From Abditibacteriaceae bacterium (lineage in GTDB: Bacteria > Armatimonadota > Abditibacteriia > Abditibacteriales > Abditibacteriaceae), in the NCBI GenBank assembly GCA_031425655.1, contig JANPJS010000092.1, positions 1 to 46,476 of the forward strand: DNA of 46,476 nt, in the 5' to 3' direction. This document shows positions 9,001-15,000 of this stretch, in pieces. The position numbers are program-made. The stretch's first letter is position 1, and every line of letters begins with the position of its first letter.

Positions 9001-12000
9001 TCCAGCAGCGAATCGCGCTTGCGAAACGCCTCGAACTTCGTAGTGCGGTCTTTGAGTTCGGTCGAAGGCGAAAGCACTTCGATAATCACGACCGGATTGG
9101 TTAAATTGTCGCCGCCTTCGACTTCGGCATCGCAAGCCACAACTACGTCGGGGTATCCGTAATCGCCCTCTTCGTTCATCTTCACGCGCAAGTCTTGTGA
9201 AAAGACCTCGCACGATTTGCCTTCCAGTTGATTGCCCAGCTTAATCGTCACATTATCCGTGATGCGAATATGCGTCAGGCTGGCACCGGCCATAGCGATG
9301 ATTTCTCCGCCGATGAATTCGCTTTTGGTTTCCGCCGCACACTCTTGCCGCAGATATTCTTCGGGCGTGAGGAACCACATTTTCGGTTCTGCAACCATGA
9401 TTTCGCCTCCGCGATTAGTTTAGCCAATGCGTTTACAACAGCGTGAGTTGCTCCGGCGGTTGGCCGTTGTGTTTGCGCAGCCAAGTCAGCAGGCTTTTCA
9501 TCGCCGAAGGTAAAGCCAAATGACCAATTTCGTCCCACTCGAACCATTCGCCGCCGTGCGGCTCGATTTCGATTTGAACCGCGAAACACGTCAACTCAAT
9601 ATGATGATGCGTGACGCCGTGCGAAATACTTTTTAAGGCCGCGCCGATGTTCGCTTCGACTCCGAATTCGTCGCGCAGCAGACGGCGTAAAGCGGCTTCG
9701 CAGCTTTCATCGCTTTGCGCCGTGACGCGCGGCAATTCCCACATTCCGCGCCACCAGATTTTGGCCTCGTGCGAACGCTGGCGCAGAAAAACCATATTAT
9801 CGCGCTGGATAAAAGCGCAGGCGTCGCGCAGTTCGATAAATGGGCGTTTGGTCGTGGCGTGCGGCAGTTCATTCTGACGATTGGCGGCAAAAGCGCCGCA
9901 AAAATCGGAAACCGGGCACGCTTCGCATTTCGGGGCGCGCGGCGTGCAGATTAAAGCGCCCAATTCCATTAAAGCCGGGTTCAGTTGCGACGGAATCGCG
10001 CCGCTGTTCGCTAATAGTTCGGCTTCGTGCCACAAACGCTTCTGGTTCGCGCCGTTTTTCAAGTCGCCTTCGAGCAAAAACAGGCGCGAAAAGACGCGCG
10101 CGACGTTGGCGTCCACAATCGGCGACGGCGCGTCGAACGCGATGCTGGTTACGGCTCCGGCGGTGTAGCGACCGACGCCGGGCAGGTTTAAAACGTCGCT
10201 TAATTCGCGCGGAAATTCGCCGCCGTGTCGCGTTGTCACAACTTGCGCCATCGCGTGCAGATTACGGGCGCGGCTGTAATAGCCAAGTCCGGCCCACAAC
10301 GGTAAAACTTCTTCAATTGAGGCGTCGGACAGGCTTTTTAACGTAGGAAAACGCTGGAGAAATCGCTGGTAAAAGGGCACAACGGCGGCGACTGTAGTTT
10401 GTTGTAACATTACTTCCGAGACCAAAACGCGATACGCATCGCGCGCATTTTCGGCGTTGCGCCACGGTAAATCGCGTTGCGCGCCGGCGAACCAAGCGCA
10501 TAATTTCGCAGCGAATTTCGCGCGGTCAAAATCACTTCTACTCACGCTTTCAGTTTACCGCCATGCCAGTAGCCAACTCCGAAGAAACGCTTTATCTCAA
10601 AGAGCAACGCCGCTTTCGCCGTCTCGAAGCCTCGCTTCCGGTGTGGTTGGCCAGCGCCGACGATTTCGACCAACCCGGCGCCAAACCGTGGTCGCTGGGC
10701 TACACGCGCGATATTTCGATGGGCGGCTCCAAAGTTTTCGTGCCGACCGGCGAAGAAGAAAAATGGCGCGCCGGGCAGGCGAGTGGGGGCAAATGCCTGC
10801 TGCGTTTCGACATTCCCGGCTTGCACTCCGATGAATATGTGACCGGCCATGTGCGCCACATCGCGCGCGATAACGAGACCGGAAACTGCTGGCTGGGCGT
10901 GGAATTCGACGACGGCGCCGAACGCGCTCGCGGCGAAGTCATGCGCGCCGGTCTTAAAAGCATCAAGCAGCGGCGCGGGTTGCAATTCGGCCTCATTCTC
11001 ACTTTGGTGGTCATCGGTTTAGGCGGCTGGGTGATTAAAAGTCTGGCCGGGCGCAACGATGAATTGCGTGTTCTGATGCAGCGCGAAAATCGGCGCTTTA
11101 ACATTTTGTCGAGGCCGGGCTTAGTCGGAACGCGCGCCGAAGGCATCAGCGGTTTGTTTGAAAGTCAGGCGGTGCGCCAGCGCATTGACCAGTTGCAGGC
11201 GAACATGAGCCGCCTCAACAATCCCAAATTTCAGCAGGAAGCCGAACGCCAGCGCGAACAGGAACTCAACGAGTTGGGCTTTTTAAACCTGAAGCCGGTC
11301 CTCGGCGCGCAAGTTACGCTGGGTGTAGCGTGGCCGTATGGTTTTGCGTGGCCTCAAGTCACGCGCGATTTGGAAGAAGTTTTAGGGCGTCCGATTCCCT
11401 CGGTCGTGACATTTCGTGATTTCAAAGCGAATTTTCCCATGATTGACTGCCGCGAAGCGCGGGTGCGTGGCAAAACCCTGCAAATCACCTGGGAACCTTG
11501 GTATTTCAGCAATCCAAACGCGGTGAAAATGAGCGACATCGCGCGCGGCAAATGGGACAAATATATTGATAGCTGGGCCAACGCGGCGCGCAGTTTCGGC
11601 GGCGAATTGCATATTCGCTTTGGCCACGAATTCAACGGCAACTGGTATCCGTGGAGCGTGCCGGCTTTGAAGAAAAACGGGCAGGATGCCGGCGTTTATA
11701 TCGCGGCTTTTCGGCGTGTGCATGACCGCTTCACGCGCGCCGGAGCCGACAACGTGCGCTGGATTTGGTGCCTGAACGCCGAAAGCGTGCCCGACCAGCC
11801 GTGGAATTCGCCGCTGCGCGCTTATCCCGGCGATGCCTATGTAGACATCGTTTCGATTGACGGCTACAACTTCGGCACCGCTTTGCCCAACTCGCGCTGG
11901 CAAAGTTTCCGCGAAGTCTACACGCGCCCTTATACGATGATTTTGCGCAACGCCAGCCTCAAAAAGAAGCCACTGATGATCGGCGAAATCGGCTGCGCCA

Positions 12001-15000
12001 GTGTCGGCGGCGACAAAGCGCGCTGGATGCGCGACATGGACGAGCAACTGCGCGGCCCCTTTCGCAAAGTGTCGGGCATCGTCTGGTTCGAGGCCGCCAA
12101 AGAAGCCGATTGGCGCATGGTTTCTTCACCGCAAACCTTAACCGCCGCGCGCCAAATTTGGATTAAGGATCATTATCGGCGAGGAGAACCCTAAACGGCA
12201 GTTTTGAGTTTTGAATTTTTAGTTTTGAGTTAGCGCGCAGTCTTATGGCAGACAGCATTATTCAGCAGAAGTCCTACGACTTTGCGCTTTCCATCATTCA
12301 GCTTTATATGGATTTGCAAAACCAGCGGGAATTCGTTTTATCGCGGCAACTACTTCGCAGTGGAACGAGCATCGGTGCGAATGTCGAAGAAGCATTAGCA
12401 GGGCAATCGCGAGCCGACTTTATTGCCAAGATGTCAATTGCTTCAAAGGAAGCCAGAGAATCTAACTACTGGTTGCGTTTGCTCCGCGACTCAAAATTGA
12501 CATCGGTTGACGTATCGCCTCAGCTTTCACAATCGGAAGAACTCGTGCGAATACTGACTTCGATTGTGAAGTCCACTAAGCAAAATTCATAATTTGATGC
12601 TGAGTAACTCAAAACTCAAAATTCAAAACTCAAAACTATGAAGGTCGTTCTCGAATCTCGCACTTACTCAGTGAAAGCGCATGACGAACTGATGCGCCAG
12701 TGGGACGAAGTGCGCTTCGAGCCGGGGCCGCTGAGCTTGGATTTGCGGCGCATCGGCTTCATTGATCCGTTTTCGATGTGCGCGCTTGTGCTTTTCCTCA
12801 ATCATCTGCCGTCCGAAGCTTTGCCGGTGAAATTAACTCTTCCCGGATGGCCGCCGCAAGGCGCGTTGCAAACTACCAAGCCGAGCGAAAAAAGCGCTCT
12901 TGAAACCGTGGCTAACGGCCCGGTTTCGTATCTCACGCGCATGGGTTTCTGGGACTTGGTGCGCGACCGCCTGGATTGCAGAGAAAACCAAATCCCCGTC
13001 TGGCCCAGCGATTTGCCGGAGCGCAAAGCTTTGCTCGATTTAACCGTCATGCATTCGCACGACGCCATCAGCGTGATGCTGCGCAAAACCGGCGAGATTT
13101 TGCAGGGCATCGGTTACAGCGTGATGGGCCGCGCCCATGTTTTAGAAGTGCTGTCGGAGCTTTGCTCGAACGTGCTTTTGCACGCTCAAGCCGAGTTCGG
13201 CGGCATCGCGGCGATGCAAACTTATCGCAACCGGCAGGGCACGCGCTATTTGGTCATCGGCATCGGCGACATGGGCATCGGAATGCGCGCCAGCCTTGCC
13301 GCCAACGAAAAATTCGCCGACCGACTTGATAGCGACACGCAGGCATTAAGCGTTGCGCTGCAAATGGGCGCCTCGCGTTTTGCAACCGGCGGACACGGCG
13401 GCGGCTTGCCGCGCGTGATGGAAATCGCGCGCCGTTACGGAGGCCGCGTGGCTTTGCGTTCGGGCATGGGCGCGCTTGCTTTCAACGGCAGCGACGAGCA
13501 AAAACGCTTGTTCGACGCGCCGCCGTTTCAAGGCACGCATTTGCGAATCGTGCTGCCCGAAGCCAAATTAAAAGCCGCCAAAGACGCGCCGGAATCAAAA
13601 TGAAAATTCTCGAAATCGCAAGCCGCAATAAATTCTGCTTCGTGCCTGTGCTGCTGATTTCTGCGGCTGTGGCCAAGCCGCACAAAGCGACACCGGCAAC
13701 GCCGGACACGCCGCGCTTCGTAATAGATGCCTCGCGTGGTTACTTGCTCGGCGCCAGCAAAGGCGGGCGCTGGGTCAAGGCGAAAATCGCCCGGCAATGG
13801 CTGCGAGGCGGCGAAAAATACACGCTTTACGACGCCAATCGCGTTGTGGGCACCGCCACGGGCGGCAAAGCTGATTTGCAAGGTGCGCCGTGCGAAGAAA
13901 CGTATTTCGTGCCTATGAAGGGTGCCGCGACGAAGCGCGTGAGCAGCATCGCGCTTTCCAATTCGGCCTCACGACCGCTGCGCCCGGTCAGTGAATTAAG
14001 CGCCTCGCAGCCGGTTTACCGCGCCGAAGTGATGAAATGGCTGCGGGCGCACGGTTTGAAGAATCCCAGTGTCAACATCGTCAAAATTTGGCGCGCCGAT
14101 CTGGATGGCGATGGCACGAATGAAGTGCTGATTTCCGCCGTGCGCCATCAGGGCAAAGCCGGGCCGGTCGGAAACATGAGTCCCAACGCGACAGCCGGCG
14201 ATTACTCGGTGCTCTTGCTGCGCCGCGTCACGAAAAAGGGTGTGCAAACCGTGGCGATGGATAGCCAAATCTATCCGCAGGCCAAAACTTTCAGTGCGCC
14301 AACGATCCACGAATTAATGTCGCTGCTCGATCTCAACGGCGACGGGCGCTTGGAAATCGTGGTGCGCGGGCGTTATTACGAAGGCGATTGGACGAGCGTT
14401 TACGAATATCTAAATGGCGCTGCACGCGAAGTGATCGGCGCCGGCTGCGGGGCGTGACTGGATGCTGGATTCTTGATGCTGGATAGTCTGCATCGAGCAT
14501 CGAGCATCAAGAAAGGAACTCATGTTTAAAGTAGGCTTGATTGGCGTCGGGCGCAAAGCGCTGACGATTGATGACGAAACGCGTTGGCTGCTGAATTACG
14601 ACTATCTGCCGTGTTCACACGCGGCGGCTCATTCGGCGTGTTCGGAAACGCAAGTCGTGGCGATTGCCAATCCGGGTTTGGATGCGCTTGCGGCCTATCA
14701 AGAACGCTTCGGCGCGGTGCGTGTTTACATCGATGCGCGCGAAATGCTGCAAGAAGAATCGCTGGATATCGTGAGCATCGCTACGCACGCGCATTTGCAC
14801 GCTGAATTGACGGTTTTAGCGGCTAAATCCGGCGTCAAAGGCGTGCTTTGCGAAAAAGCGATGGCGACTTCGTTAGCCGAATGCGATGCCATGATTGCGG
14901 CTTGCGCCCAAAGCAACACCAAGCTGCTGATTAACCATCCGCGCCGCTTTCATCCCGTTTTCGAGATGGCAAAACAGCTCATCGCCGAGGGCGCGATTGG

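Follow-up and report, generated by a model that had tools for sequence, protein, structure and literature searches.

Alg44, the co-polymerase of the Pseudomonas alginate system, is encoded in one operon with its partner synthase Alg8. According to PMC8892547, Alg44 combines an N-terminal cytosolic PilZ domain, bearing RxxxR and DxSxxG motifs, with a single transmembrane (TM) helix and a periplasmic C-terminal part, and Alg8 has no sensor of its own; the same source calls the role of the hydrolase in synthase systems enigmatic. In the BcsA-BcsB-BcsZ-BcsC system, a GT2 synthase with QxxRW motif and gating loop is combined with a periplasmic endoglucanase and a TPR-rich barrel protein. BgsA of the rhizobial BgsA/BgsB system, which produces mixed-linkage glucan, is a BcsA-like synthase without PilZ that is nonetheless controlled by c-di-GMP, bound by its own cytoplasmic C-terminal domain (PMC5567048).

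The window analysed here, a 46,476-nucleotide stretch from a genome of the family Abditibacteriaceae, encodes a 543-aa PilZ-TM-stalk-GH26 protein (10563..12194, +; all features of this protein given below lie on the + strand). The translated ORF has at least 100 homologues (coverage at least 87%, identity 46-87%), and the alignment of 101 sequences used throughout consists of the query and 100 listed homologues at that coverage. The survey's finding had described a PilZ domain with RxxxR at 16 and DxSxxG at 50, a single membrane helix followed by a helical stalk, and a GH26 domain with both catalytic glutamates, and each of these elements was located. Pfam matches above cut-off were obtained for PilZ (aa 14-125, 10602..10937, predicted to be cytoplasmic; E 5.9e-7) and for GH26 (E 3e-8). 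The R16-x3-R20 motif (10608..10622) lies ahead of the PilZ barrel and is kept in 97/101 sequences, three of the four exceptions being without an N-terminus, while D50-x-S52-x2-G55 (10710..10727) is kept, as [D/N]x[S/A]xxG, in 100/101; the PilZ pair and both catalytic glutamates occur together in 97 of the 101. The AlphaFold2 model (pLDDT 87.8) comprises a β-rich N-terminal domain, a long helix (120-158), three stalk helices between membrane helix and barrel, and a TIM barrel.

The PilZ domain is followed by a basic juxtamembrane helix (aa 126-139, 10938..10979), in which G130 and R137 are invariant, and by a single predicted membrane helix (aa 140-158, 10980..11036) with N-in/C-out orientation, as judged from hydropathy and charge according to the positive-inside rule. 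One hydrophobic 19-mer (KD ≥1.6) was observed in all 101 sequences and a second in none, and K+R content was higher on the N-terminal side of the helix in 96/101 (mean 5.1 vs 2.9). The predicted topology consequently places PilZ inside, followed by a single helix, a helical stalk (aa 159-250, 11037..11312) and an extracytoplasmic GH26 domain. LptA/LptC-like genes are present in the genome, indicative of an outer membrane and a diderm cell, and GH26 would therefore face the periplasm. The survey had proposed that c-di-GMP inside the cell is linked to glycan cleavage outside it; the anatomy is borne out and the catalytic pair is intact. Such coupling is plausible as a partial account, and 'outside' is to be replaced by the periplasm.

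The GH26 TIM barrel (11313..12191) has the lichenase CtLic26A as its nearest solved relative, with which it shares 36% identity and, over the target, a TM-score of 0.93, and its (β/α)8 fold fits GH26 structures. Residues 249-543 of the AlphaFold2 model superimposed on 2bv9 with Z 37.1 and rmsd 1.7 over 279 aligned positions, and CtLic26A was much nearer than mannanases or xylanases (Z 37.1 vs 24.9). E356 (11628..11630), within H355-E356, and E475 (11985..11987), within I473-G474-E475, are each present in 101/101 sequences and align with E109 and E222 of CtLic26A, being predicted as acid/base and nucleophile, respectively; in the Michaelis-complex entry 2cip, the second of these catalytic positions is occupied by Gln. 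Equivalents of F41, E70, W72, H108, Y115, N157, W255, F256 and K260 of CtLic26A are retained as well. Conversely, the position of E258, which we take to be a -2 subsite contact of CtLic26A, is aligned with A511, beside E510, and the specificity may therefore differ. CtLic26A is the GH26 domain of CelH from Clostridium thermocellum, a β-1,3;1,4-glucanase that is secreted as part of the cellulosome and has neither a PilZ domain nor a membrane anchor, whereas the protein analysed here carries both PilZ and a membrane helix.

In the full-length AlphaFold2 model, the PilZ part forms six strands (26-115) with a helix starting at 120, in agreement with the canonical six-stranded barrel and C-terminal helix. 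Sequence comparison of the PilZ part with solved structures gave no meaningful match. Position h of [D/N]hSxxG, given as the canonical PilZ receptor motif in 10.1101/814665, is I, L or V in 100/101 sequences. We consider this domain a putative c-di-GMP receptor of the canonical type, with binding predicted; intact motifs are no proof of binding, since the PilZ of RiGT2 has both, and is itself needed for activity, yet showed neither binding of c-di-GMP nor stimulation by it (PMC10374906). It is the only PilZ domain found in the source genome, both by Pfam and by our own HMM, next to 23 GGDEF and four EAL matches. Family-wide, 21 of the 23 Pfam PilZ matches belong to the PilZ-GH26 gene, spread over 20/27 genomes.

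The only BcsA-like GT2 synthase of the source genome is encoded outside the window (contig C124, 20691-24188). It matches Rhodobacter sphaeroides BcsA over 73-590 (E 1.4e-42) and retains the DAD, TED and QxxRW motifs and the gating loop FxVTxK, as well as an equivalent of E371, namely E355 (89/91 aligned rows). No PF07238 (PilZ) match was found among its 92 orthologues, the best E-value of our own PilZ HMM over 91 synthase rows was 4, and TIGR03030 scored 243 bits against a cut-off of 699. The stretch running from the last core helix through an extra helix measures 63 aa in the median (88/91 rows) and is thus too short for a PilZ barrel; where BgsA has its c-di-GMP-binding domain, this synthase has only a short, variable cytoplasmic linker. 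Besides the extra helix, the synthase has a class-I-GATase-like domain in the periplasm, interrupted by a long helical insert (3rht: Z 15.4, rmsd 3.7, 218 aligned). For the C-terminal domain of the synthase, no usable Atlas match and no Foldseek match at E ≤0.001 were obtained. Behind the synthase in the source genome are BcsC-like TPR/barrel genes, encoding a TPR-rich protein with a C-terminal barrel-like region, and in three further genomes (G009, G016 and G018) the barrel gene lies apart from the synthase, indicating that genes of this system are unlinked elsewhere too. BcsB was represented in the source genome by one marginal match of 49 positions, and GH8 was not found in 26/27 family genomes. 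Compared with the Bcs system, the synthase thus lacks PilZ, GH8 and a clear BcsB are missing, and PilZ and a candidate periplasmic endoglucanase reside together on a separate gene. A divergent cyclase at the synthase locus was considered as a partner and rejected, as it recurs in only 2/21 loci.

The PilZ-GH26 architecture was seen in one family alone (Abditibacteriaceae by source names). Of 24 other family genomes, 14 carry it at full length and four in a partial or broken form, and in six it was not found; 16 genomes outside the family yielded GH26-domain matches only. Conservation through the family, as surveyed, is thereby borne out; the overall picture agrees with the survey's count of full-length orthologues in 11 of 15 genomes, the exact figure not being reproduced because the genome set differs. 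The split copy in G022 is due to an N-run. A downstream STAS/HATPase gene is near in 9/17 loci, but it is present in 24/24 other family genomes and was rejected as a specific partner because it is kept even where PilZ-GH26 is lacking. Unlike in the Alg44 operon, no glycosyltransferase was found beside PilZ-GH26 in 17 loci, nor PilZ-GH26 within 21 synthase loci, and both results count against a partnership with the synthase. A Rosetta-stone test returned 12 longer homologues, none listing PilZ or joining PilZ-GH26 to a synthase, which constitutes weak evidence. The gene trees of PilZ-GH26 and synthase broadly agree; since kin share history, this agreement was not used as support.

Among 27 family genomes, PilZ-GH26 was detected in 21 (20 and a fragment in G010), the synthase in 22 and the barrel gene in 21. 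Within the 16 genomes that are at least 90% complete, each occurs in 13, and the same three lack all of them. By raw counts, the same 5/27 genomes gave no match to PilZ-GH26, the synthase, the BcsC-like exporter or a further two GH26 genes. As these two GH26 paralogues are unlinked and share the absence, the co-loss marks a module rather than the PilZ-GH26/synthase pair alone. Empty PilZ-GH26 sites with the genes on either side retained were observed in G011, G015 and G019, and the genes on the two sides of synthase and TPR gene in G013 adjoin each other in G008, indicative of an empty site. The five negative genomes retain the STAS/HATPase neighbour, mutY and NamZ (5/5), EAL matches and another GH26 paralogue (5/5 each) and 7-16 GGDEF matches each; one control gene is absent from three of them. 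They probably represent two to three lineages, the deep branches being unresolved, and two are less than 90% complete.

One genome, G014, counts against a strict partnership, as its PilZ-GH26 gene contains three frameshifts while the synthase, the TPR-barrel gene and the other tested neighbours are in frame. With dN/dS at 0.28-0.29, the G014 synthase shows purifying selection; relaxed selection, considered on account of its long branch, was not supported, as dS is raised too (0.95 vs 0.22-0.45) and dN/dS is like that of other pairs. Recent decay and assembly error are indistinguishable in this case, since the PilZ-GH26 pieces are still constrained (dN/dS 0.20-0.37) and the PilZ ORF retains both motifs. 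In G024, a close relative, the synthase is present and PilZ-GH26 was not found, with the contig ending at the expected site.

On balance, we regard it as somewhat probable that PilZ-GH26 acts in trans as an Alg44-like c-di-GMP subunit and BcsZ-like hydrolase of a scattered β-glucan secretion system. Domains, motifs, the PilZ-less synthase and the joint presence and absence are read directly from the genomes, and from these we infer the partnership. The system would include PilZ-GH26, the PilZ-less BcsA-like synthase, the BcsC-like TPR/barrel genes and probably two secreted GH26 enzymes. Dimeric c-di-GMP would be bound by R16, R20 and D50, upon which PilZ and the membrane helix might dock on the synthase and free the gating loop in trans, in the way that Alg44 activates Alg8. 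The stalk would keep GH26 by the polymer exit, where cleavage of the nascent glucan could keep the periplasm clear, determine chain length or free the chains, in the manner of BcsZ or AlgL. Because the GH26 domain is lichenase-like, the polymer may be a β-glucan, possibly mixed-linkage, and because its distribution ties the gene to the PilZ-less synthase system, PilZ may act mainly on the synthase and not on its own GH26 domain. The protein would be at most Alg44-like in action and no member of that family, since its C-terminal domain is GH26 where Alg44 has a MexA/HlyD-like domain; moreover, its putative partner is BcsA-like and encoded at an unlinked site. The capacity of PilZ-less synthases such as BgsA to bind c-di-GMP themselves (PMC5567048) counts against this reading. 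Complex prediction with synthase residues 60-642, PilZ-GH26 residues 6-245 and two c-di-GMP scored 0.00 in two runs (mark 0.32), the controls, unlike in the calibration, not having been folded, and was given no weight in either direction.

The mechanism that the survey had in mind assigns the protein to the same glucan module as a self-contained c-di-GMP-gated hydrolase, with the synthase controlled otherwise: binding would alter oligomeric state or position via helix and stalk and so toggle periplasmic cleavage, for example releasing glucan at low c-di-GMP. It accommodates the nearly fixed fusion length across the 100 listed homologues, a stalk about as conserved as PilZ (0.53 vs 0.59) and the persistence of the synthase without intact PilZ-GH26 in G014 and G024, and requires no physical contact with the synthase. 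We nevertheless hold it to be rather doubtful, as no obvious regulator would then remain for the conserved E355 and gating loop of a PilZ-less synthase, and as an open GH26 cleft would have to be controlled allosterically through one helix and ~90 residues, for which the papers found offer no precedent.

Improbable in our assessment is a role in foraging for, or sensing, environmental β-1,3;1,4-glucan such as lichen glucan, with PilZ coupling the enzyme to the c-di-GMP network and the synthase link a by-product of shared ecology. The nearest structure is a lichenase, the genome has six GH26 matches, and an abundance of Abditibacterium in Antarctic lichens has been reported (PMC10373906); yet the protein is anchored in the inner membrane of a diderm, is absent jointly with synthase and exporter, and has no recurring sugar-uptake cluster in 17 loci (clusters compared by similarity, with only the window genes annotated). 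Equally unlikely, despite the RiGT2 precedent, is a purely structural or docking PilZ without c-di-GMP binding, the protein then being an anchored hydrolase or a partner that serves the synthase constitutively, given that R16, R20, D50, S52 and G55 are kept in 97-101/101 sequences although column conservation across the domain averages 0.59, and that the genome is rich in cyclases.

An extension of the trans-acting reading is tentative: a three-in-one subunit of sensor, co-polymerase helix and glucanase may activate a synthase that has lost its PilZ, as the family's only conserved PilZ output and with a mixed-linkage product, and PilZ-TM-stalk-hydrolase proteins of Omnitrophota might belong to a wider class of this design. 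The Omnitrophota proteins P0270 and P0272 share PilZ, one helix and a coiled coil and likewise end in a large domain, but their C-terminal domains are different, with weak GH76 similarity (E 0.007), and no P0272 loci were confirmed. In two small Omnitrophota genomes with such distant proteins, no BcsA-like synthase was found among 10/11 GT2 matches, which counts against the trans-acting reading. GT2-GH26 fusions (P0230 and P0247) hold both domains in one chain, with no PilZ listed. No characterisation of either group was seen in the papers found; likewise, mostly open papers gave no account of the PilZ-GH26 architecture or system, the supplements of 10.1101/814665, which may list such fusions, excepted.

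What is new, at the level of sequence, is that the sole PilZ match of a genome resides on a GH26 protein while the only BcsA-like synthase, encoded elsewhere, is PilZ-less. The proposal is directly testable because both proteins are present in cultured Abditibacterium utsteinense (PilZ-GH26, WP_170065449.1; synthase, WP_123580579.1). If true, it would add another route by which c-di-GMP is wired to a polysaccharide synthase, in which a BcsA-type enzyme with retained gating elements has its PilZ on another membrane protein, allowing the in-cis release mechanism to be tested in trans. It would also tie the hydrolase of synthase systems physically to the activator, and would assign a role to what is predicted to be the chief c-di-GMP output in a lineage that has barely been studied.

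The PilZ-GH26 gene (window 10563-12194, + strand) encodes a protein of 543 aa, in which Pfam matched PilZ (aa 14-125) and GH26 over cut-off. A homologue search (8000 candidates scored, 351 matches) yielded, among the best 120 matches listed, at least 100 homologues with ≥87% query coverage and 46-87% identity; source names among these, where given, indicate Abditibacteriaceae. When the query was aligned with 100 such homologues (n=101), RxxxR was present in 97 sequences and [D/N]x[S/A]xxG in 100, while no sequence lacked either of the two catalytic Glu residues of GH26. Each sequence possesses exactly one strong hydrophobic segment (query positions 140-158), and since K+R counts are higher before this segment than after it in 96/101, an N-in/C-out orientation is predicted. 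A structure model agreed with the four-part anatomy of PilZ, membrane helix, stalk and GH26. The domains, motifs and predicted single membrane helix of the survey's finding were borne out, and the protein is real and conserved. As for the proposed glycan cleavage 'outside' the cell, the predicted side stands, and the compartment is revised: the source genome (G000) contains LptA/LptC-like genes, indicative of a diderm cell, which would place the hydrolase in the periplasm. The GH26 barrel is far nearer the lichenase CtLic26A, the GH26 domain of Clostridium thermocellum CelH, than it is to other GH26 structures (E 5.6e-52; TM 0.93; Z 37.1, versus 24.9).

A GT2 search of G000 revealed one BcsA-like synthase (G000:C124:20691-24188; L067:9692-13189, - strand), in which the gating loop, the catalytic motifs and a counterpart of E371 are all retained. 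In R. sphaeroides BcsA, the resting state is held by the pairing of E371 with R580, a residue of the PilZ linker (PMC8892547). PilZ was found on none of the 92 synthase orthologues; in an alignment of 90 of these (two partial ones left out), the region where the PilZ barrel would sit has a median of 63 residues, including one membrane helix, and is followed by a periplasmic GATase-like domain. This domain resembles class-I GATases in fold, bears a long helical hairpin and has like folds in Agd3 and GH42; it could stand in for BcsB, of which no convincing match was obtained in G000. Behind the synthase (L067:1970-9559, G000:C124) lie genes for TPR proteins with a terminal barrel-like region, BcsC/PgaA-like below cut-off; the barrel-like region itself had no Pfam match. 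In the G000 genus, all four genomes split this BcsC-like protein over two genes; other genera have it as a single gene coding for about 2000 aa. In 26/27 family genomes, no GH8 was found. As the synthase has no PilZ and no GH8 was found, both a sensor and a hydrolase appear to be missing, exactly the two features predicted for the PilZ-GH26 protein. A NamZ-like muramidase gene (L072:13786-14955 and equivalents) is divergent from the synthase in 10/21 loci, yet is kept in genomes without it. A second, divergent and contig-truncated synthase copy was observed in G017:C51 (L085:7673-9654).

The synthase was present in 20 of the first 41 genomes, every one within the family. Across 27 family genomes, PilZ-GH26 was identified in 21, the synthase in 22 and the barrel gene in 21, with all three unmatched by these queries in G007, G008, G011, G015 and G019 (92, 95, 93, 89 and 77% complete, respectively). 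Contigs end at the PilZ-GH26 site in G010 (63% complete), where the barrel gene was also not found, and in G024 (80% complete). Empty sites were recognized: in G017, PilZ-GH26 lies between mutY plus a second gene on one side and STAS/HATPase on the other, and the same flanks occur without it in G011, G015 and G019; in G008 the NamZ-like gene abuts genes that in G013 come after the synthase and TPR genes. Among controls, mutY, NamZ, EAL and one GH26 paralogue were kept in all five negatives, which also have 7-16 GGDEF matches each; one control gene was kept in just two. Three gene trees firmly group G011, G015 and G019, with G007 and G008 outside and deep branches weakly settled, and the three genes were probably lost jointly two or three times. 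Two unlinked secreted-type GH26 paralogues of G000 (C323:1841-3280 and C5:14796-16268; loci L061 and L065) are each present in 21/27 genomes and, like the synthase, missing from the five negatives. They are candidate further members of a glucan module, the case for which their distribution strengthens; since unlinked genes share these absences, joint loss cannot single out which proteins bind each other.

PilZ-GH26 is the only Pfam PilZ match in G000, alongside 23 GGDEF and 4 EAL matches; a search of 5277 ORFs with an HMM of its orthologues detected no second PilZ. Family-wide there are 23 PilZ matches, of which 21 belong to PilZ-GH26 and two to small stand-alone proteins in G008. A PilZ-only relative in G017:C55 (L048 about 8200-8760, - strand), to which protein P0260 is similar, has both motifs without membrane helix or GH26, and sits between a CpaF-like ATPase gene and a TadB-like gene. 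A second, long-branch PilZ-GH26 copy (L040:6319-7971, G001:C306) follows genes for large outer-membrane-like and secreted repeat proteins.

The neighbours of PilZ-GH26 vary from genus to genus, and no recurring synthase-type glycosyltransferase adjoins it in the 17 loci with an orthologue. In the window, mutY is divergent, the two starts being only 17 bases apart (10545-10563); neither a clear promoter nor an obvious ribosome-binding site was seen for PilZ-GH26. Downstream lies a four-helix-bundle gene (12198-12637; PF05635 at 12245-12592), which looks like a recent insertion because G002 and G003 have no such gene between the same neighbours. By eye, its flanks show short tandem repeats, inverted relative to each other (TTTTGAG-like before, CTCAAAA-like after). 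The next gene (12638-13603) is HATPase-like and, on our reading of its sequence, also STAS-like; its product is perhaps anti-sigma-like. Found near PilZ-GH26 in 9/17 loci, it was ruled out as a specific partner because it is present in 24/24 other family genomes tested, as well as in one same-order genome.

The PilZ-GH26 gene probably belongs to a glucan secretion module, whether as activator or as gated hydrolase. As the likeliest reading, at a little better than even odds, we propose that c-di-GMP would bind the cytoplasmic PilZ domain, that the bound PilZ would switch on the PilZ-less synthase in trans, and that the tethered GH26 domain would trim or release a presumed beta-glucan emerging into the periplasm. 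Against activation in trans, a PilZ-less synthase can bind c-di-GMP by itself (PMC5567048), and G014 carries three frameshifts in PilZ-GH26 with the synthase and tested neighbours intact; an intact PilZ ORF is retained there. That the protein instead serves this module as a gated hydrolase working by itself seems rather unlikely. Still less is to be said for a docking PilZ domain that binds no ligand, in spite of a precedent in PMC10374906, where a PilZ domain carrying the two motifs showed no binding; a foraging enzyme for outside glucan is just as improbable.

By predicted role, PilZ-GH26 as a trans-activator with a tethered hydrolase works like Alg44 plus BcsZ; unlike in Alg44, the periplasmic domain is GH26 and the gene is unlinked, and it is hence not an Alg44 member. 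GT2-GH26 fusions occur in other bacteria. A profile of its first 250 residues (15 sequences) gave 28 matches among 1.84 billion representatives, including PilZ-TM-coiled-coil proteins with different C-terminal domains. One group, mainly from Omnitrophota (L132:7882-9936; L133:5168-7174), has a C-terminal domain that is large, helical and weakly similar to GH76; its Atlas clusters, with 54 and 124 members, bear only the name hypothetical. These genes are orphans in 2/2 loci, and no BcsA-like synthase was seen among 10 of 11 GT2 matches in the two respective genomes, which are small. Within the reach of the literature searches made, no description of the PilZ-GH26 architecture came to light; it would extend synthase-dependent, c-di-GMP-controlled polysaccharide secretion with a variant form.
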